Shown piece by piece: positions 13,603 through 59,945 of a stretch of DNA of 64,000 bases. The DNA is from a virus. The stretch lies in IMG/VR virus record IMGVR_UViG_3300048919_000265. One strand, given 5' to 3'. The position numbers and the translations under genes were made by a program. The notes beneath the pieces are model-generated. The model was not told the origin of the DNA. It ran no database searches and saw only the letters and a list, made by a program, of their open reading frames with translations. Each line of letters opens with the position of its first letter. Position 1 is the first letter of the stretch.

Positions 13603-15732
13603 TCACTCATCCATAAAAATCATCTTTTTAAACTTTAATGGTTCTTTAGATCCTTCCGCATACCGATCAAACAAAACTCCCAATTTACTACTTACAGTTT
13701 CTGGGAATTCTTCAGCACCCACCTTACGGGCTTGTGTATCTGTTACACCTTCCATAAGATAATACCGTATTCCACTAGCCAAGCCATTTAAATCTGTTAT
13801 AGTGGTAGTAGTCAATATGAATCGTATATTAGCCGCGGAACAGTCTTGCAATACCTTCTTAAAATTTTCTATTTTATTATTCTTAGAATCACGTCCCCAT
13901 CCAAGAACCTTGTCTAATCCAACAATCCAATTAAACACGGGCTTCAAATGGTTATATGTCATCATTTGATCTTTACAACCATTAGCTTCTGCTAATTTTA
14001 TATAATTAATAATTAACTTTTTGCGAGCCTCCAATAAATCTTCACCACTAAGGCCCCCTAACTTTAAACCTTGCACATAAGAATTCTCAGTACTCAGAGT
14101 TAAAACATGATAGCAACGATACCTATTTAACATAGTATCATAAGAAGATCCCTTATCAAAACACATATAGAAAATTGTGTCAGTATTATCATCAGTATGA
14201 CGTTGTTGAGAGAACACCTGTTCCTCGGCTTCCAGCGCTATTTTTCTATAATAGACTGCACCGAGATATGCAGTTATTGCAGGACTATCTGCATCCCTAC
14301 CATCTAGGATTTTAGGATTTAACTCTTCAAGACCTATTTTAGTGGTCACCTTTTTATCCGCAGAAATGACATTCACGAACACTGATGATCCCATAGCCTT
14401 AAGGTTCTCTTTAATCATTTTGGAGTACCTGACGACATTAAGAGAATTATCGCACCACACCATCATATTCTCTATCTCATCACCTGTAAATTCAAGTCTG
14501 ACATAGTTATCGTCATCTTTATCCCGCATAACAAACGATGGTTCCCCTAAATAAATCTTTTTGTTGCTTCCACCCTTAGAAGAAATAAGTTCTCTGAACT
14601 CTTCTTCATTCAACAAGGACTCTTCATTATAAAATGAGAATTTATGTCTAAACCCAACTTCTGTACCAATGCGATCCAGCTCCAATAGCATTTCTTTGAA
14701 TTCTTGATCCCCTTGGTATGGAACCCTATAATGCACATTATCTTTTTTATCTGCGTTACCTGGTTTAGTGTTTATAATTAATCGACCTTTGGCACCGAGA
14801 TTCATGTTAGCTTCGGTGTTACCAAGCAGTTTATTAGAAACATCAGGCATACATCCAAGTGCCATGCGAACGTTGATATTGTTCAACGTAGCAGTTGGTA
14901 TTTCCCCTGGTTCCTGTGAAGCCAACAACAAGTGATAACCTGTACTACGACCAAGACGGGCAAAATCATCCAAAAGGTCTTGAATTATTTTTGCTTTCTT
15001 AGCTGCATTTTTAAAGAGAGTTTGGAATTCGTCTACAACAATAAGATTACGCGGATAGTTTAAACCCGTGTACTCACGGAACTTTATTAAGTTATCTGTG
15101 CCACCATGCTCCGAAAACATAGCATTTACTTGTATCATCTCATCGCGCAATTCTGTGAGCACACTAATTATATATTCCGCATCAGTAGTTGCCGCTATAG
15201 ACGAAGTATGGGGAAGTATTCCTCCTGAAACCGCATACTTCTTAAAACCCGCTATCTTGGCATCTGCTAATGTGATCTTTAGCTCCCAAGGTGCGTACTT
15301 TAGTGCTAGTGCCTGTATAATACTATCAAGTAAAACAGATTTACCACCACCTGTCATGCCACCGGCAATGGCATGGATGTCCTTATCATTGAGTTCAGCA
15401 CTAGATGGATACCGGCTATCCCCATTTTTATAACCCAGTCCAAGAAGATTTATCCCCTTATGGGAATTACCCTCCCAAATTGGGAAATTATTTTTATACA
15501 GAATAGGGCCGTCAAAACGTAATATCCTCTCTGGCTCTGCATCTCCTTTTTTAAGTCTGCTAAGTGGTTTAGGAATCCTGACTTCTCTAGGATATTGACT
15601 TTCCTGAGAGTGTTTCAGAAAATACTTCGCTACAAACTCATCAAACATTAAGGGGGAAGAACCCCCACGTATAAAGTCTTCCTCTACCAACTTTGTTTGT
15701 TCTAAGATGCTAGTTTCATCAATGGAGTACAT
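13603..15732 (-). CDS. Soluble FtsK/SpoIIIE-family ATPase (EssC/EccC-like), one intact and one degenerate domain
   Basis: HAIAGGMTGGGKS (Walker A), LIVVDEFQTLF (Walker B), ARLGRSTGYHLLLASQ, NINVRMALG. No TM segment. Confidence 0.9.
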   Translation of the reverse strand: MYSIDETSILEQTKLVEEDFIRGGSSPLMFDEFVAKYFLKHSQESQYPREVRIPKPLSRLKKGDAEPERILRFDGPILYKNNFPIWEGNSHKGINLLGLGYKNGDSRYPSSAELNDKDIHAIAGGMTGGGKSVLLDSIIQALALKYAPWELKITLADAKIAGFKKYAVSGGILPHTSSIAATTDAEYIISVLTELRDEMIQVNAMFSEHGGTDNLIKFREYTGLNYPRNLIVVDEFQTLFKNAAKKAKIIQDLLDDFARLGRSTGYHLLLASQEPGEIPTATLNNINVRMALGCMPDVSNKLLGNTEANMNLGAKGRLIINTKPGNADKKDNVHYRVPYQGDQEFKEMLLELDRIGTEVGFRHKFSFYNEESLLNEEEFRELISSKGGSNKKIYLGEPSFVMRDKDDDNYVRLEFTGDEIENMMVWCDNSLNVVRYSKMIKENLKAMGSSVFVNVISADKKVTTKIGLEELNPKILDGRDADSPAITAYLGAVYYRKIALEAEEQVFSQQRHTDDNTDTIFYMCFDKGSSYDTMLNRYRCYHVLTLSTENSYVQGLKLGGLSGEDLLEARKKLIINYIKLAEANGCKDQMMTYNHLKPVFNWIVGLDKVLGWGRDSKNNKIENFKKVLQDCSAANIRFILTTTTITDLNGLASGIRYYLMEGVTDTQARKVGAEEFPETVSSKLGVLFDRYAEGSKEPLKFKKMIFMDE

Positions 15733-15734
15733 CT

Positions 15735-18365
15735 TTACTTTCCTCCTGCTCTTCGCTGCTTCTCCTCATTCCATATTTGGGCGAACATAGTTTTCAAATC
15801 CTTAGCTGCTTGCACACTGCTAAACCGAACTTGTGACTCTGCTTCCTTAAATTCCAGGACCTTAACAACCCAATCCAGAATGAGCGGTTCCAGGGATGAT
15901 AACGTATTTTGTGAAGGTCGAATGTTCTCCGGGACATCACTTGATCCACCAATAATATACTTTTTAACCCCATTAATTTCTCTACTTGCGAAACAGCCGA
16001 TAACCTTCCCATTGTGCGTAAAGGCTACCTTGTTATCCGTTTCTTGGAAATGTACTATAGAAGGGTGTGTTGTATCTTCAATCAGCTCAATTGGTTTATC
16101 TGACGCGGGTACCACTGATTCCTTCTCAACAGTATTAGTTACAATAGGCGCTTTGCTTTCTTCTATCTTTGTCTCAGTTGCACCAGCGAAAGAATTCATA
16201 CCAGCCAATCTAGACGCTATTCCCTCAGCAATGGCAGCACTCTTAGTTTCTTGCTCTACTGAGACATTACTCCACAATTGACCTTCGTTAACGTAACCAT
16301 TACTTAACATTGTTTCTAAGTAAATATTGGCGGACTCTGTCAATTGTACATCCTCCGACATAAATTCGATTTCTCGTTCATCGAATTTGGCAGAAGCCTT
16401 CAAAACGATAGGTGCAAGCAAAGTAGCAATATTAGTTCTGACGTAAAGTTCTTTGGGTACATTCGCAACCTCAGTCATCTTATACTGCAACTCTTCTTTA
16501 TTACGGAAGGCTAGCATTTCTCCCCATTTAGATAATTTAGTATCTGAATACAGATACTCAAACAATATACTTAGGGTGGACAAATTGCTAACACTATATT
16601 CTAATTTTAAACCTTTAACTGTATCAGACTCATAAAAAACAGCTTCCTTAGCGGTGGAAGCTTCTGCTGACTCATTTGCAAGTCGGAGAGCTATTTTGCT
16701 GTTAAGCACATCACTACCTGCATTAACAACTAATTTACCGTTGTTATACTCAATACCTTTAATCCAATCAGAGTTGTTTTCTTTCAGACGACTGATAACA
16801 TCAAGGAAACTCAAATAAACAACCTGTCTTGTTCCACCTTCAAAATATTTCTCACACGCGAGACCAATAGGAATGTTTATTTTTGCATTACTGATATTTA
16901 ACTTCTTTCTATACTCGAGGTCTCGGAATTTATCATCATACGTGATAACTCCCTTAATTCCCATCTCATATAAACCATCGATCAATACAGGCTTCATATT
17001 ACTAATATTGCCTGTATTGCTTCTTATGATGAATTTGTTCATATCTAAGTAGTTATTGAAGTCACCTAATTTAAGCACAGTTGGTTTCATTTCGCCCCAA
17101 CGGGATAATTTGATTATTGCTTCGACATGAGCAGCGAAACCCATGCCACCTTGCTCGGCAGCCAACATGATAAACTTATTAAGCAACAACGGTCCGTCTA
17201 CTATACCCGTACTTTGATTTGGGAAATACTCTGCGCTTCCATATTCTCCATCGGAAGATGCAGCTCTTTCATCATCCTCATCCTCATCCGCGTAAGACAA
17301 TGGGAAATTTCCACAATGCATCCAATTTAATGTGGAAACTCGGTTAACAAATTCAGACAATAATTCTACCATTCTAGGTGAAGCAACGCATCTAGAAAAT
17401 AGATCTTCTGGATTATGATCAGGGAAAGTCTGCTTAATATCAAACATAATCAATTCAGTCAGTGCATGCATAAAATCTTGCTCATTTGGTTGCACTTCTA
17501 AATCATTATTATCTACAGACCCCTCAACTAATCTGAAATCTATTCTCGGGATATCCTCTAATTCTTCCTTGGTAGGGTTTATCCCTAAAAGGGACGCAGC
17601 AGAAACTAACTGCTCTCTCATTTGACTTCTGTTATATCGGAAGATGTCCTTATAATAAGGAGTAAAATAAATAAAGTGTGGATAGGGTTTAGCTAAGTCT
17701 TTTCCAGTTGGGACGAGTTGCGCTATCGAAACATCCATACTTCGCAATCTATCATAAGAAGGCAGTTCCATAAAAAATGTATCATAGGGACTACGCATAA
17801 ATTGCGTCCTATTTATGTCTGAGCGAATATACTTAAACTGTGGCCCCATCTTACTGTTCCAGTCACGTACCGCAGGAATAGTAACTGCTGGATTTATGTA
17901 CGTCATTTCTGGAGCCAGCACTTTAAACTTTTCTTCGCCCTTGATATAATTGTCAAGTAATAAATAAGTCTCTTGAAACTTGATAACTACATCTGCATCA
18001 ATGCCTGTATTAGTAGACGATTTAGTTAATTGTGCTGCAATTTGGGACGCGTATTCTTTAGTAAAAGTAGGTTTGTTTTTACAAAAATTATACAACGTGG
18101 TTATATCCAACGTACCATTAGGACTACCTGAATCTGGGACAACCGATAATGGCAGTCCTGCTCCTAGGCGAGGTTCCTTTGCAGGGTCCAAAGTCGTAAT
18201 GTTTACACGCTCGCCATAAGTTTGTAAAGTAGTTAAAACTTGCTCCTTACCCAGCATCTCCCTAAAGTCTACCAAACGAACTTCTCCATCAATATTAACT
18301 TTACTCAGAAAAACTACATTCACTGAGCTTCCTTTATACAAAGGCAAAGGAACATAATAAAGCAC
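15735..18365 (-). CDS. Hypothetical protein (876 aa) inside the T7SS-like module
   Basis: Long ORF with RBS GAGGAGG, 2 nt from the ATPase start; no recognised domain. Confidence 0.8.
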   Translation of the reverse strand: MLYYVPLPLYKGSSVNVVFLSKVNIDGEVRLVDFREMLGKEQVLTTLQTYGERVNITTLDPAKEPRLGAGLPLSVVPDSGSPNGTLDITTLYNFCKNKPTFTKEYASQIAAQLTKSSTNTGIDADVVIKFQETYLLLDNYIKGEEKFKVLAPEMTYINPAVTIPAVRDWNSKMGPQFKYIRSDINRTQFMRSPYDTFFMELPSYDRLRSMDVSIAQLVPTGKDLAKPYPHFIYFTPYYKDIFRYNRSQMREQLVSAASLLGINPTKEELEDIPRIDFRLVEGSVDNNDLEVQPNEQDFMHALTELIMFDIKQTFPDHNPEDLFSRCVASPRMVELLSEFVNRVSTLNWMHCGNFPLSYADEDEDDERAASSDGEYGSAEYFPNQSTGIVDGPLLLNKFIMLAAEQGGMGFAAHVEAIIKLSRWGEMKPTVLKLGDFNNYLDMNKFIIRSNTGNISNMKPVLIDGLYEMGIKGVITYDDKFRDLEYRKKLNISNAKINIPIGLACEKYFEGGTRQVVYLSFLDVISRLKENNSDWIKGIEYNNGKLVVNAGSDVLNSKIALRLANESAEASTAKEAVFYESDTVKGLKLEYSVSNLSTLSILFEYLYSDTKLSKWGEMLAFRNKEELQYKMTEVANVPKELYVRTNIATLLAPIVLKASAKFDEREIEFMSEDVQLTESANIYLETMLSNGYVNEGQLWSNVSVEQETKSAAIAEGIASRLAGMNSFAGATETKIEESKAPIVTNTVEKESVVPASDKPIELIEDTTHPSIVHFQETDNKVAFTHNGKVIGCFASREINGVKKYIIGGSSDVPENIRPSQNTLSSLEPLILDWVVKVLEFKEAESQVRFSSVQAAKDLKTMFAQIWNEEKQRRAGGK

Positions 18366-18415
18366 ATTAATAGCCTCCTCATAATCCGATTAAAATCGTA
18401 CCCTAAATAACAATA

Positions 18416-18443
18416 GGGAGAGGCGCAAAATCGCACCCCTCCC
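18416..18443 (-). terminator. Intrinsic terminator after the two small helical-hairpin genes
   Basis: Minus strand GGGAGGGGTGC-GATTTT-GCGCCTCTCCC (11 bp with 2 G:U) followed by TATTGTTATTT. Confidence 0.65.
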
Positions 18444-18534
18444 CGGTCTTCCTTCCTATTCCCACAAGACAGTGGATAAGAGCTGTTCATGCCGTTAGCC
18501 TCCTTAATCTTGGCTAAACCAACACTACTAAATC

Positions 18535-18879
18535 TTACTGAATAACATCGGAAGCATCAAGCTTTGAACCCGAGAAACTCAGATCTTGCTTACTAACTTC
18601 CCCAACAGTAGCACGTTTTGCCAGCCATTCGGAAACATCATAAGCATTAGTAATATCTGAAACTACTTCCTGCACACCCTCACGGATGCTGTTATAGTTA
18701 TTCTGGAAATTAACACAGGCTTCCAAAACTTGCTCCGTCAAAGGATTATCATCCCCTGTATTTTTCATAAGGGCTGCCAACTCTTCAACACTATTAAGTA
18801 CGTCTTCATTCATATTCTTCATAATAATTCCCAAGCTATTATCCAACTTAGCAGAATCTAATTTAACTACTCCAGCCAT
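18535..18879 (-). CDS. WXG100-like helical hairpin protein (114 aa)
   Basis: Amphipathic helix, G/D/N/P turn at about 41-46, second helix, then Y80-D-V-S-E84; next to FtsK-domain genes. No canonical WxG. Confidence 0.6.
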   Translation of the reverse strand: MAGVVKLDSAKLDNSLGIIMKNMNEDVLNSVEELAALMKNTGDDNPLTEQVLEACVNFQNNYNSIREGVQEVVSDITNAYDVSEWLAKRATVGEVSKQDLSFSGSKLDASDVIQ

Positions 18880-18903
18880 TCTTAATTCCTCCTTTCTTTT
18901 CTA

Positions 18904-19167
18904 TTAGTTACCTGAAAATCCTTCAAGAGCTTTATAATGCCCGCTCCATGCATCCAATGCTTCAACCAGTTGGTTAACACTCTTAACAAAACCAGGAGAC
19001 GCTTGCTCCAAGTTAGATGTAGAAGCAATCAACTTAGCAACGTTAGAATCACGTCCAACCTCAACCGTGTTTTCAACGCCACGTTGCCAGTACGTAGTAA
19101 TCTCAGCTACTTGCTCAGAAGTTGATTTAACTTTATTAATGATATCAAAATTAACTGTATTTCCCAT
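18904..19167 (-). CDS. WXG100-like helical hairpin protein (87 aa)
   Basis: Start reassigned to ATG 19167 (RBS GGAGGTG). Helix-turn(G38)-helix with Y78-K-A-L-E82. No canonical WxG. Confidence 0.6.
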   Translation of the reverse strand: MGNTVNFDIINKVKSTSEQVAEITTYWQRGVENTVEVGRDSNVAKLIASTSNLEQASPGFVKSVNQLVEALDAWSGHYKALEGFSGN

Positions 19168-19226
19168 GTCCTTCACCTCCATTTCATTCATCTTAGTATA
19201 ATGCAAGCAAGCTTAAAAAGAAGGTT

Positions 19227-21008
19227 TTAATTTTTGAACTTATTCAACTCTTCTATGGCCCAGTCTCTAGCTTTAGTGCTCACTTTACCATTACTTATAG
19301 TGTAAATCATCACATTCTTCTCAAACAATGTAATATGAGACTTATTTAATCTCTCCATGGGCAAAAATAAATTTGTAAATAATCCAATAGCAGGACCAAC
19401 ACTAATCATTTGATTAAACAATTCATCATTAAGCAAACTGTCTGACAAGTCTAAAACAAAAGTGAAGAAGTAAGACTCCGGTAAGCTATCTAATGACAAC
19501 ATAACTTCATTATACGCGGTGAGGTTTTTATATTCTTTAATAACTATCTCATTACGCTTAATAATTAGGTCATTCATTTCCTCTAATGTTGCAGTTATAT
19601 CTTGCTGACTTGCAATAATCTTAAACAAATCTGGTTCATTAATGACAAACCTTGTAAAATTAACACCCATTTTTTCTTTATCCCATAGCCTTAGCCTTAG
19701 GCTATGAGGATTCATACGCACCCGTAATTGCACAAGTAGTAACTTTATAAAATCATAAACGGTTTCCGCTTCATCCTCATTATATAGGAAAATGCATGAC
19801 TGTTCTTCCGGATATTCAAACATAACAGGCTTATCATCTTTAATATCCAACAAAAATATACGATCCAAAATTGCTTGCTTCTCCATTTTAGTTAAGTCGA
19901 AGAATCTACTTTTTATATCTTCCACTTCCGCACTCAACGAACGCTCTAATTCCGCTAATTCATCTTTGATCAATTCCATAGCGGAAAGGCTCTTTCGGAT
20001 GGTTTCCTCTAAAACCGTTCTCCTGCTTTCCATTTCAGCAATAGTCGTTTGAGCAGTTTTTTCTAATGTAGATGCATCAAATTTAAAGCTAACAATGGCT
20101 TGTGTCCTAGCACTTGATATCTCGTCCTCTGCAAGGAGTAACTCTTGTAACGCCGCCTCTTTACTATCCGCAAAGTTTAATTCCATTGCCTGCAATTTTG
20201 CGGAAAACTCCTCCTTAGCTAATTCTCTCATCTGTGTTTCATACAACTCAAGGTTGTCCGACACTGCTTTATACTCTATTAAAGTCCTGGAATATAAAGC
20301 TCCCAACTTCACGTTTCTAAAAGCCGTGTAAAATAAGAAACTCAAATAAATAGGAAATGTGATCCAAGCAGTAGCTATCACTAAAACTGACAAAACTGCT
20401 GTCAATATGAGGGCACCCTTGGCATCACCTTTTATCTTTTCAGAACTGAAAGATCTTATAGCATCCTCTAACTTTTCTATTAAAGAAAGTCTCTCTTTCC
20501 TTTGGACTTGTTCAATTCTTTCCTTTAATGAATTGAAATTGGACAACAACGTTTGTATATCAGAGTCACTCAAGATAATAGTCGAAGAATTCAATTGCTT
20601 AACATACACATCAGCAAAACGAGAACCAATATCTCGACTTATCATTTCCTTAACTTCTAAACTTGACTCCTTTATTTCGAGCAAAGTTTTATTCTCGCTA
20701 GCCAGGCTATCATAGATATTATTTTCATCCAGAGAGTCCTTAGCTCTTCTGTACTGCTCCTCTAGTTCCTGTAAATCGTGGGCTACCTTGTCTCTCCGTG
20801 CTTGAGCCGAAATGGTGCTTTCACGCAAGTATCTTTCCTTCTCTAGTTGCTCGTTTTCTTCTATATCAAGCGCCAACTGTTGCTTAACCTGATTGATACT
20901 GCTGTCTATAACAGCGAGATCATCTTTACAACTCTGAATCTTCCTAGAATGCGTTATTTTTTCCCTCGTCTTTAATTTTATTTCTTCTTTTATGTTTTCA
21001 TAGCTCAT
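19227..21008 (-). CDS. Membrane-anchored coiled-coil protein with a degenerate C-terminal FtsK-like domain (EccCa/EssC N-part-like)
   Basis: Long coiled coils flanking a hydrophobic segment (ALILTAVLSVLVIATAWITFPIYLSFLFYTAF). The C-terminal ITATLEEMNDLIIKRNE...YKNLTAYNE...LPESYFFTFVLD follows the FtsK domain pattern but has no Walker A. Confidence 0.65.
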   Translation of the reverse strand: MSYENIKEEIKLKTREKITHSRKIQSCKDDLAVIDSSINQVKQQLALDIEENEQLEKERYLRESTISAQARRDKVAHDLQELEEQYRRAKDSLDENNIYDSLASENKTLLEIKESSLEVKEMISRDIGSRFADVYVKQLNSSTIILSDSDIQTLLSNFNSLKERIEQVQRKERLSLIEKLEDAIRSFSSEKIKGDAKGALILTAVLSVLVIATAWITFPIYLSFLFYTAFRNVKLGALYSRTLIEYKAVSDNLELYETQMRELAKEEFSAKLQAMELNFADSKEAALQELLLAEDEISSARTQAIVSFKFDASTLEKTAQTTIAEMESRRTVLEETIRKSLSAMELIKDELAELERSLSAEVEDIKSRFFDLTKMEKQAILDRIFLLDIKDDKPVMFEYPEEQSCIFLYNEDEAETVYDFIKLLLVQLRVRMNPHSLRLRLWDKEKMGVNFTRFVINEPDLFKIIASQQDITATLEEMNDLIIKRNEIVIKEYKNLTAYNEVMLSLDSLPESYFFTFVLDLSDSLLNDELFNQMISVGPAIGLFTNLFLPMERLNKSHITLFEKNVMIYTISNGKVSTKARDWAIEELNKFKN

Positions 21009-31045: not shown

Positions 31046-32410
31046 CTAAACTTCTTCGATAACAGGAACCGCAGAAGAGAAATGTTTACGACGTGCTAGC
31101 AACACAACAATACCCAGCACCAACCAAATTAATCCAATAACCCATGTAAGATGATCGAATCCAGTAAACACATAAGCAATAATTCCTGCACCAATAGCCG
31201 GAAATAATCCATAAATAAGCAATGATTTCAGATCATACTGTTTCTTCTTAATCACAAAATACCAGATAACCGAAACATTCAACAAGAAATATGTCGACAT
31301 AGCGCCAAAATTAACAAGTCTAGAAAGAGTTTCTAAACTCAACAAGAAGGCAATAAAGATACTTAAAACTCCTACAAAAACTGTAGCATTAACAGGTGTC
31401 TTTGTCTTTTCGTTAACTTGTTTAAAGAATCCAGAAAAAGGAATGGCATTATCCCGACCCATAGCGAATAGTACTCGAGAAATCGCAGACAATACCGGAA
31501 TAGCATTAGCGATACCAACAAACAAGACACAAGCTCCAATTACTGTTGTATAAAATCCATGACCGCCTACAATTTTCATTACATCAAAATATCCCATATC
31601 AGGGCTAAGCGTTGTATAATCAGGGTGAACCAAGCTTGCGAAATATGACTGAGTCATGAAGATACAAACAATGCAAACAAGACTCAGCAATACCGCCTTA
31701 CCTACGCTCTTAGCTGCTTTCTTCGCTTCCTCACTTTGTGTTGCAATACTATCAAAGCCAATAAATCCTAGCAATCCTACCGAACATCCTTGTGCAATAG
31801 CATGGAAACTGAATGTATCTGCATTGAAAAACGGTTTCAAACTAAACGCTCCCAATCCAACTCCATCAACCAATACAGCTTTTGCTGCCAGCACAGCAAA
31901 CAACGCAATCATTGCCAACTGTCCATACAGGAACGTATAATTAACCCACTTCCAGATATTGCCGCCTCTTGCAACAACCACTGTAATGATCAAAGTAAAA
32001 AGAAGAATCACGATCCAAGCTGGAAAGTTCGGTGCAATTGCAGCTAACCAAGTGGTAGAAAACTTAACAAGCATACCCGGAATAATACTATAATCCATCA
32101 AAATCAACCAACCCGCTAAAAATCCAATACTAGCATGCATAGCTCTTTGCACATAACTATAAGAAGAGCCTGCAACTGGAAACTCTGATGACATCCATTT
32201 ATAACTAAGTGCAGTAAATAACATTGCACAACCACAAATCAAATAAACCAGTGTAGCATGACCTTGACTCAAAACCTGTGCAGAAGCCCAAACCTGCGTA
32301 GGTGCAAAAGGAAACATACAAAGCAACCCAAACATAACTAGCATACCAACCGTCAAATCACGGGACAACTCCTGCTTATACCCGCTACCTACTACTACCT
32401 TCTCTTCCAC
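31046..32410 (-). CDS. APC-family amino acid/polyamine permease (PuuP/PlaP-like)
   Basis: About 12 TMs; PVAGSSYSYV, GFLAGWLILMDY, FIGFDSIATQSEEAK, SRVLFAMGRD. Confidence 0.92.
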   Translation of the reverse strand: MEEKVVVGSGYKQELSRDLTVGMLVMFGLLCMFPFAPTQVWASAQVLSQGHATLVYLICGCAMLFTALSYKWMSSEFPVAGSSYSYVQRAMHASIGFLAGWLILMDYSIIPGMLVKFSTTWLAAIAPNFPAWIVILLFTLIITVVVARGGNIWKWVNYTFLYGQLAMIALFAVLAAKAVLVDGVGLGAFSLKPFFNADTFSFHAIAQGCSVGLLGFIGFDSIATQSEEAKKAAKSVGKAVLLSLVCIVCIFMTQSYFASLVHPDYTTLSPDMGYFDVMKIVGGHGFYTTVIGACVLFVGIANAIPVLSAISRVLFAMGRDNAIPFSGFFKQVNEKTKTPVNATVFVGVLSIFIAFLLSLETLSRLVNFGAMSTYFLLNVSVIWYFVIKKKQYDLKSLLIYGLFPAIGAGIIAYVFTGFDHLTWVIGLIWLVLGIVVLLARRKHFSSAVPVIEEV

Positions 32411-58581: not shown

Positions 58582-58818
58582 TTAAAACATATTCATACCA
58601 GTAACCTTAGCTCCGCTTTTCTCAACATTTTCCTTAGTTCTATTTACTGGTTGATTGTTGTTAGAATCCTGCCCACTCCCACGAGCTTCACCCTCATATA
58701 AATTAAAGAGCTTAATTTCTCTGTTTTTAATATTCACCGTTTTCACTAAACGAGCTTCGATTTCTGTATGATCGTCCTCGATTAAACGTCCTTCACTTCC
58801 TGCTATTCTAATAATCAT
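58582..58818 (-). CDS. Hypothetical protein (78 aa) ending KVTGMNMF
   Basis: Start ATG 58818 in ATGA overlap, RBS GGGAG. Confidence 0.7.
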   Translation of the reverse strand: MIIRIAGSEGRLIEDDHTEIEARLVKTVNIKNREIKLFNLYEGEARGSGQDSNNNQPVNRTKENVEKSGAKVTGMNMF

Positions 58819-59945
58819 TGATATTTCTCCCTTCCCATCTGTCGATAATCGAGGTATTCCGTAGTAGATATGATACCAAACTCTTGTAGAGTTTCTAAAT
58901 TTTCCATTAAAGAAGTCCACAGCTTTTGCTTTACTTCTATTGAGTGATCAAATCTATTAAGATCAACTTCTAATTTCCTAGTAATCATCTGATACACTAG
59001 GAAATCGTTCCTTAGTGTACCATAGAACTCTCTAGCAAATTCCATCGCTTTCATGATTTGTTTCTCTGTATAAACTAAGCACTCACCTAATGATATTCCT
59101 TTAGATATGCACCAATAATATCGTATAATTGGATCAAATGCTCTAGTTTTAGCAATTTCCATAGGATAATACGTATATTCTGCCAAAGCCGAATTATACT
59201 TCGCATATGTGGCCCTATTAATTTGCCCATTGTTGAACATTTCTAATAAGGCTGCATGCGCAGACTTGGCTTTATCTTCGAATTCATAACGATTAGTTAA
59301 AAACAAAAACATTAAATTAATGCCGATTGCCTCAATATCCAGATTTACTTCACTAACCTCATCAACGATAGCCATCTTCTTGAAATCTCGAGCAGGTAAT
59401 GATCTTTCTACTTTCAACTTGTAAATCATACCCGCTTTTAAAACTTCCGCTATAGATACCATATGGACCCTGCTAGTTATCTCTCTAACCATACTCATAA
59501 CAGCGTTTGTACGAAGCGCATCAAGATTTCTCCAAAGCTCTTCATTTGGATCTCGCATCCCCTCTAGCACCTTGGACGCAAGCTCTTTTAAATATTTTAT
59601 AATATGTGGATTATTATACCGGTGTCTGCCTAAATCAACCCACTTATTAAACTCTGCACAAGTATGGCGTGCTAGTAACAGCGACCTCATTTCTTCTTTA
59701 TTAAAATGAATATTATAAAACCCTTTTTTCTTTATGGTGTCAAAACGAATCAAAGAGCTGCTAATCTTTTCTTCTAGTTGACCGCTTTTTATGGCCATCA
59801 TCCGATCCACATAATGCATATACTTATTATGGGAAATCTCCTGATTGTCCCGGGCAACTGCCAATTGATACAAAACATAGTCATAATCCGCTTTAAATTC
59901 TGGATTATATCTACTCATAATGAGATATTTATCAATATCTATCAT
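58815..59945 (-). CDS. Hypothetical helical protein (376 aa) with SHOCT-like repeats
   Basis: Three segments of the L..L...G.I...Y type. Confidence 0.75.
   Translation of the reverse strand: MIDIDKYLIMSRYNPEFKADYDYVLYQLAVARDNQEISHNKYMHYVDRMMAIKSGQLEEKISSSLIRFDTIKKKGFYNIHFNKEEMRSLLLARHTCAEFNKWVDLGRHRYNNPHIIKYLKELASKVLEGMRDPNEELWRNLDALRTNAVMSMVREITSRVHMVSIAEVLKAGMIYKLKVERSLPARDFKKMAIVDEVSEVNLDIEAIGINLMFLFLTNRYEFEDKAKSAHAALLEMFNNGQINRATYAKYNSALAEYTYYPMEIAKTRAFDPIIRYYWCISKGISLGECLVYTEKQIMKAMEFAREFYGTLRNDFLVYQMITRKLEVDLNRFDHSIEVKQKLWTSLMENLETLQEFGIISTTEYLDYRQMGREKYQ

Follow-up and report, generated by a model that had tools for sequence, protein, structure and literature searches.

Two small genes, encoding proteins of 87 aa (P0001) and 114 aa (P0002), lie 24 nt apart on the minus strand of the window, the 64-kb stretch of DNA analysed here (Table 1); both open reading frames occur exactly where a preliminary description of this DNA had placed them. 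The gene caller began the 87-aa gene at an upstream ATG, giving a protein of 95 aa, but only the ATG at 19167 has an RBS. On the 3' side of the 114-aa gene, a GC-rich hairpin stem and T-run occupy positions 18444-18415. Strong RBSs and a shared terminator had been taken to imply high expression; the GGAGG sites and the 13-bp hairpin are real, but strong RBSs are the general rule across this element, so that the RBSs by themselves are no sign of unusually high expression of the pair. We found neither a paralogue of P0001 or P0002 nor a canonical WXG100 gene in the 64-kb window.

Table 1. Position of the gene pair, its expression signals and its neighbours in the window.
Feature	Coordinates	Strand	Evidence or description
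87-aa gene (P0001), acidic helical hairpin	18904..19167	-	ORF, orthologue alignment, AlphaFold fusion model, pI 4.9
114-aa gene (P0002), acidic helical hairpin	18535..18879	-	ORF, 131 clusters at 50% identity, column counts, AlphaFold, hhalign to WXG100
RBS GGAGG of 87-aa gene, 8 nt 5' of ATG	19176..19180	-	Same site in orthologous loci
RBS GGAGG of 114-aa gene, 8 nt 5' of ATG, within the 24-nt intergenic gap	18888..18892	-	
Intrinsic-terminator-like hairpin and T-rich run, 3' of the pair	18405..18444	-	13 bp, 8 GC pairs
593-aa upstream neighbour	19227..21008	-	Synteny, hydropathy
876-aa orphan, downstream neighbour	15735..18365	-	
FtsK/SpoIIIE/EssC-superfamily ATPase, 709 aa	13603..15732	-	Walker A G125-S132, Walker B 230-235

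A conserved two-gene unit on large Bacillota elements

The pair is carried by a plasmid-like element of 212,527 bp that belongs to Bacillota and whose gene content includes replication genes that are very divergent, an amino-acid permease and a fused RNA polymerase. Megablast found no match to the region in phage or plasmid collections. The permease (31046-32410, minus strand) is of cellular type; its closest genome matches, in a Bacillota MAG, an Actinomycetes MAG and Lancefieldella, are only 37% identical and point to no clear host. Only one public run contains window positions 17500-20500, and its label is 'root metagenome'; a variety of other Logan, JGI and ENA assemblies supplied the related loci. 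This particular element may therefore live somewhere other than the gut.

Word-index homologue searches with P0001 and P0002 each retrieved only the query itself; relatives were instead reached through the 876-aa neighbour and with a profile built from six sequences of the 114-aa family, run as a full HMMER search. The latter family comprises 131 clusters at 50% identity, nearly all of 101-121 aa. Both families are specific to one family of extrachromosomal elements of Bacillota, of roughly 150-300 kb. A search with the ATPase alignment yielded four metagenome loci only, of which one could be used; genome and viral contigs gave no match.

In all 11 loci with enough flanking sequence, a gene for a ~590-aa membrane/coiled-coil protein is followed by the ~88-aa gene, the ~113-aa gene and a terminator hairpin; an ~865-aa orphan (876 aa in the window) and then an FtsK/EssC-type ATPase come next wherever the contig is long enough, and an RNase T-like exonuclease gene lies 5' of the ~590-aa gene in 8/8 loci whose flank reaches that far. 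The strong, GC-rich hairpin and its T's stand after the second small gene in 11/11 loci, conserved in position and varying in sequence, and the bicistronic arrangement with its 24-nt gap recurs in every relative. Pairing, gene order and terminator are thus preserved across every relative examined, which makes the pair a conserved unit of two genes, closed by a terminator of its own. Genes past this hairpin probably need it to be read through. In most related loci TTTAGGAGG, which serves the ~865-aa gene as RBS, follows the terminator T-run within ~15 nt; in the window (18366-18534), ~35 nt separate the T-run from the RBS of the 876-aa gene.

The two small genes share a reading frame in 7/11 loci (the window, L001, L004, L007, L010, L013 and L014), against about one-third expected; in the window, TAA-TAG and seven codons lie between them. 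This shared frame may be chance, and stop-codon read-through to a fused hairpin-hairpin protein is conceivable. At L011:5577-5981 the 87-aa orthologue is called as 134 aa, its first 47 codons being duplicated in tandem; the duplication is either real or an assembly artefact.

Sequence motifs and the tail of the 114-aa protein

The ESX export signal of Daleke et al. (2012), as described in PMC3935865, consists of a conserved Tyr and a conserved acidic residue near the C-terminus with exactly three residues between them. The preliminary description had seen a YxxxE at equivalent positions in both proteins, and the residues concerned, Y78-K-A-L-E82 in the 87-aa protein and Y80-D-V-S-E84 in the 114-aa protein, are indeed present. 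Aligning the homologues for Tyr and Glu conservation, the check that had been proposed, told against it: neither family conserves the Tyr and the acid at that spacing. Y78 is kept in 9/12 orthologues of the 87-aa protein and an acid at +4 in 3/12, while in the 114-aa family Y80 is found in 18/126 members (column 80: I19, Y18, V17, F12, T11) and E/D84 in 95/126 (column 84: E80, D15). Within the last 45 residues, Y-x-x-x-[DE] was observed in 3/12 and 18/124 members, compared with 2.0 and 18.0 expected from shuffled sequences. Because the signal demands a conserved Tyr and acid with exact spacing, the feature that defines it was tested directly and is found in neither family; with the motif at chance frequency, its equivalent positions in the two proteins carry no family-level meaning. 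On these alignments, YxxxE is a chance feature and not the docking signal. More generally, one YxxxE in a helical protein should not be taken as evidence of an ESX signal, its rate here being that expected from composition.

The reported lack of WxG holds at the turn of both proteins. W-x-G occurs in 1/12 members of the 87-aa family and 1/124 of the 114-aa family, which is chance level, and in 20/20 control WXG100 domains. P0001 nevertheless contains a literal W74-S-G76 (18946-18954), which lies near the C-terminus, not at the turn, and is missing in 11/11 orthologues. The glycine-containing turn placed near residues 38-42 also needs adjustment: conserved turns do lie there, at G/N42 in the 87-aa family and at G42-D43-D44-N45 in the 114-aa family, but G38 is not the turn residue of the former, position 38 being Ala in 10/12 relatives and Gly in the window protein, and the true turn residue being 42. 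The 87-aa family evolves fast, and its best-kept positions are G30, E36, A38, G/N42, L46 and Y78-K79.

Conservation was evident in the 114-aa family at N63 (124/126), N24, N45, Q59-x-x-[YF]62-N63 and D81-h-x-E84-[YFW]85. Its N-terminus, M-A-x-h-K-L-D-x-E-x-L, resembles the start of WXG100 proteins, and its tail carries a signature of its own, G93-E-V95-x3-D99-x2-F102 ... [IVL]107-D108, with [VIL]95 in 116/126 members, [DE]99 in 84/126, and Phe, Val or Tyr at 102. The general C-terminal pattern of WXG100 proteins is HxxxD/ExxhxxxH (Poulsen et al. 2014, PMC3935865). Starting from position 95, H-x3-[DE]-x2-h, the first eight positions of that pattern, is present in 62/124 members; the last H sits one place late, at +5 where the pattern has +4, in a stretch that the model shows as disordered. 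Enrichment of the full pattern was seen neither in the 114-aa family nor in a small control set of WXG100 domains. This conserved, disordered tail ([VIL]95-x3-[DE]99-x2-[FVY]102 ... [IVL]107-D108) is a better candidate docking signal than YxxxE.

Predicted hairpins and the WXG100 profile comparison

Structure prediction shows both proteins as helical hairpins, with modelled helices at residues 8-41 and 44-82 of the 87-aa protein (turn S41-N42, in a fusion model) and at 9-40 and 46-92 of the 114-aa protein (turn 41-45, disordered tail 93-114). Model confidence is moderate, with a pLDDT of 63 for the 114-aa monomer (124 alignment rows, pTM 0.34) and of 71-84 in the helices of the fusion. Both families are acidic, the medians of their pI being 4.55 and 4.75. 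Foldseek searches of both models against the PDB returned only non-significant generic hairpins and bundles, including phage small terminase, T3SS needle proteins and ROP.

The fusion model treats the pair as a read-through product in which the two stop codons are replaced by Gly within a 9-residue linker; seven loci permit such an in-frame chain, giving 7 paired rows. The resulting model (pTM 0.61) has helices at 8-41, 44-82, 105-118, 121-135, 142-175 and 179-184 with block-mean pLDDT of 71-84, and best matches four-helix bundles of the ferritin/Dps type (Z 9-10, ~139 residues aligned, positions 4-179). As the matched fold runs up-down-down-up with a long crossover, we infer that the hairpins would lie antiparallel, as in ESAT-6/CFP-10. 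Z scores of 9-10 are common among helical bundles, and AlphaFold tends to pack any two amphipathic hairpins; the modelled bundle, an artificial single chain built on 7 paired rows and no test of binding, is consistent with a heterodimer.

Neither P0001 nor P0002 has a match at E <= 0.1 in Pfam, NCBIfam or PHROGs. We compared the families with an alignment of 20 WXG100 domains, which PF06013 had located in 6 of the 121 Bacillota genomes sampled. Over positions 1-88, hhalign aligned the 114-aa family to these domains with a probability of 75-79%, a P of 1.6e-5 and a score of 29.9; the reversed control scored 15.3, 60 shuffles of seven-column heptad blocks 13.7 +/- 2.3 (maximum 19.7), 60 free column shuffles 9.5 +/- 1.7, and other families from the same loci and elements 11.9-20.3. 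The HMMER and hhalign alignments set the WXG100 turn in registers about one heptad apart. Searched against the PDB, the 114-aa profile found nothing significant; 11 of its 55 weak hits have the WXG100 fold and align over their full length, among them gbs1074 (E 0.0077), HP0062 (0.015), SAG1039 (0.02), B. anthracis EsxB and an ESAT-6-like protein. Profiles of five sequences gave nothing relevant in the PDB. One of 124 members matches PF06013 at 2.3e-4 and one matches TIGR03930 at 3e-4, and the ESM atlas offers, as leads only, values of 0.87-0.91 to EspC, WXG100 and TIGR04197 clusters. Conversely, the 114-aa HMM misses the true WXG100 genes in five T7SS-bearing genomes, where it finds only noise, topped by an unrelated 138-aa ORF.

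The 87-aa family behaves differently: its score against the WXG100 profile is 16.4 versus 15.9 for the reversed control, and its profile retrieves mostly designed helical proteins from the PDB, with only 1 WXG100 chain. The two families are unrelated to each other beyond their first 11 residues, where they share an N-terminal h-x-h-[DN]-x-[ED]. The 87-aa family is therefore Esx-like in shape only, with no detectable sequence relation to WXG100. For the 114-aa family, the profile comparison argues that it is probably a true remote member of the WXG100 superfamily, and there is moderate support for regarding the 114-aa partner as a very distant WXG100/ESAT-6 protein that would have lost its W-x-G turn. 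Profile comparison of the 876-, 124- and 201-aa neighbour families with WXG100 gave nothing.

The ATPase module and known secretion systems

The 709-aa ATPase encoded two genes downstream has one Walker A and one Walker B motif in a single recognisable P-loop domain, and no hydrophobic or transmembrane segment. Its best NCBIfam matches are EssC (8.8e-19) and EccCa (8.8e-18), with FtsK at 1.8e-4; the EssC and EccCa matches are far under the model cut-offs (66.7 bits against 778 for EssC). In the PDB its profile matches EccC (8e-19), YukB (5e-17), EccC5 (8e-17), FtsK (1e-16) and a TcpA-type DNA translocase coupling protein (5e-10). With EccC, YukB and FtsK within two orders of magnitude of one another, the ATPase is a member of the superfamily that is not assignable to its secretion or its DNA-pump branch. 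The C-terminus of the ATPase family (13603-13640 in the window) is a nearly invariant K-F-K-K-M-[AI]-F-x-x-E whose F-x-x-M-x-F core is like the CFP-10 tail signal; elsewhere in the window, the fused RNA polymerase ends in ...KMDKMKLF and a 112-aa protein (58582-58920) in ...GMNMF.

The 593-aa protein, always 5' of the pair, has a hydrophobic stretch at ~200-228, coiled coils and a conserved C-terminal domain. By eye, this domain looks like an FtsK domain without Walker A; a PDB profile search and hhalign against the ATPase family gave no such relation, and neither a degenerate FtsK domain nor a split arrangement of the ATPase with the 593-aa transmembrane protein gained support from them. The 124-, 201-, 593- and 876-aa neighbours have no match in Pfam, NCBIfam or PHROGs, and the same libraries revealed no EssB-, EsaA- or YukD-type protein nearby. 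The surrounding genes are of replication type (RNase T-like exonuclease, PolA-like, NERD, Toprim).

The remote WXG100 match, the hairpins, the bicistronic pairing, the bundle of the fusion model and the downstream ATPase lend moderate support to an EsxA/B-like pair. That proposal of the preliminary description thus gains independent backing for the 114-aa family and for the pairing, while its motif argument falls away and the 87-aa family is left with no sequence link. Our most likely reading, held tentatively, is that the two proteins form a divergent Esx-like heterodimer, devoid of WXG, and that it works together with the FtsK/EssC-type ATPase, export being putative. Two acidic helix-turn-helix hairpins of ~88 and ~113 residues would pack antiparallel into a four-helix bundle, as EsxA and EsxB do, and the dimer would act with the ATPase as its substrate or activating co-factor, in the setting of a stripped-down type VII-like translocation module; docking on the ATPase would be through the 114-aa tail, not through YxxxE. 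A far-reaching extension, which we regard as a long shot, is that the pair, the 593-aa protein and the soluble ATPase form an undescribed minimal type VII-like translocator of giant elements, in which the dimer would switch the ATPase on and the module would export, or hand to a recipient cell, proteins of the element including its own RNA polymerase and toxins.

The same Esx-like fold might stay in the cytoplasm, the dimer assisting or regulating an FtsK-type DNA translocase that segregates or transfers element DNA, as TraB/TcpA-type plasmid pumps do. We think this rather unlikely, although several features fit it: the soluble ATPase, with its one intact P-loop domain, is equally close to FtsK, EccC and YukB and also matches the TcpA-type coupling protein, and the module sits amid replication genes with other T7SS parts not recognised. 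Against it, Pfam, NCBIfam and PHROGs reveal no DNA-binding motif or family in either small protein, the NCBIfam scores favour EssC/EccC over FtsK, and WXG100-type hairpins are not known to partner FtsK proteins that pump DNA.

It is also unlikely that the resemblance to WXG100 is convergent, the proteins then being abundant helical hairpins of unrelated role, such as a scaffold, a nucleoid or transcription accessory of the element's own polymerase, or an anti-defence protein. The many unrelated hairpins returned by fold searches at non-significant scores, the noise that the 114-aa HMM finds in whole genomes and the isolation of the 87-aa family in sequence space all agree with convergence; the profile-profile score, however, exceeds heptad-preserving shuffles by ~7 sd and is double that of the reversed control, WXG100 chains are enriched among the matches of the 114-aa family and not of the 87-aa family, and the linkage to the FtsK/EssC-type ATPase is invariant.

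WXG-less small helical partners are known from T7SSb, namely Lap1 (DUF3130/TIGR04197), Lap2 (DUF3958) and EsxC/EsxD (PMC9600955, PMC11217815). That our hairpins are targeting partners of this kind, binding the 876-aa protein and presenting it to a type VII-like exporter as Lap1 and Lap2 do for LXG toxins, is improbable: two small helical proteins directly 5' of a large orphan do reproduce the LXG/Lap locus order (PMC11217815, PMC9600955), and the ESM atlas sets P0002 near a TIGR04197 cluster at 0.90 (a lead only), but the 876-aa family shows no similarity to either WXG100 or LXG, a terminator stands between it and the pair in all loci, and P0002 neither matches TIGR04197 nor shows a profile link to the only TIGR04197 protein that was recovered. 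That protein, unlinked to either family, was the single match in 401 Bacillota genomes, and five T7SS-bearing genomes had none. The N-terminus of the 876-aa protein does not look helical by eye.

If the divergent Esx-like heterodimer is the correct reading, the WXG100 superfamily would include a sizeable WXG-less branch (at least 131 clusters at 50% identity) carried exclusively by giant, self-equipped Bacillota elements outside the chromosome. Its companion would be a soluble FtsK/EssC-type ATPase of unusually small size, and no type VII-like module yet known from Bacillota would be more reduced. Such a module would also hint at the way in which the elements pass proteins or DNA from cell to cell.

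Among known systems, the pair is most readily set beside the WXG100/ESAT-6 pairs (EsxA-EsxB; EsxA/YukE; the sagEsxA-like proteins of Bacillota; PF06013, TIGR03930). It shares with them acidic hairpins of ~100 residues, adjacent genes less than 80 nt apart (the bicistronic criterion of Poulsen et al. 2014, PMC3935865), a predicted four-helix-bundle dimer, the N-terminal start, the profile match of the 114-aa partner, an unstructured conserved C-terminal tail on one partner and an FtsK-family ATPase in the locus. It differs in having no W-x-G at the turn, where the 114-aa protein has G-D-D-N, and no conserved YxxxD/E; the 114-aa family falls below every curated model threshold and has its own signature, Q59-x-x-[YF]-N63 with N24 and N45, and the 87-aa partner has no detectable sequence relation. 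With Lap1/Lap2 and EsxC/EsxD (PMC9600955, PMC11217815) the pair has in common its size, hairpin fold, lack of WXG and paired genes directly 5' of a large protein, but here no LXG-type protein comes next, TIGR04197 is not matched and a terminator intervenes.

EssC and EccC are membrane-bound, with two TM helices at the N-terminus and three to four FtsK-type domains, and type VII systems are now divided into T7SSa-j (Garrett, Higginson and Palmer 2024, PMC11217815). By the criteria of that scheme, the module fits none of the T7SS types described: its ATPase is 709 aa long, with no membrane anchor and one recognisable nucleotide-binding domain, EsaB/YukD-like, EssB and EsaA parts are not recognised, and it resides on a giant extrachromosomal element among replication genes. 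What it shares with T7SSa-j is that the two universal components, an FtsK-related ATPase and a small hairpin protein of Esx type, are encoded together.
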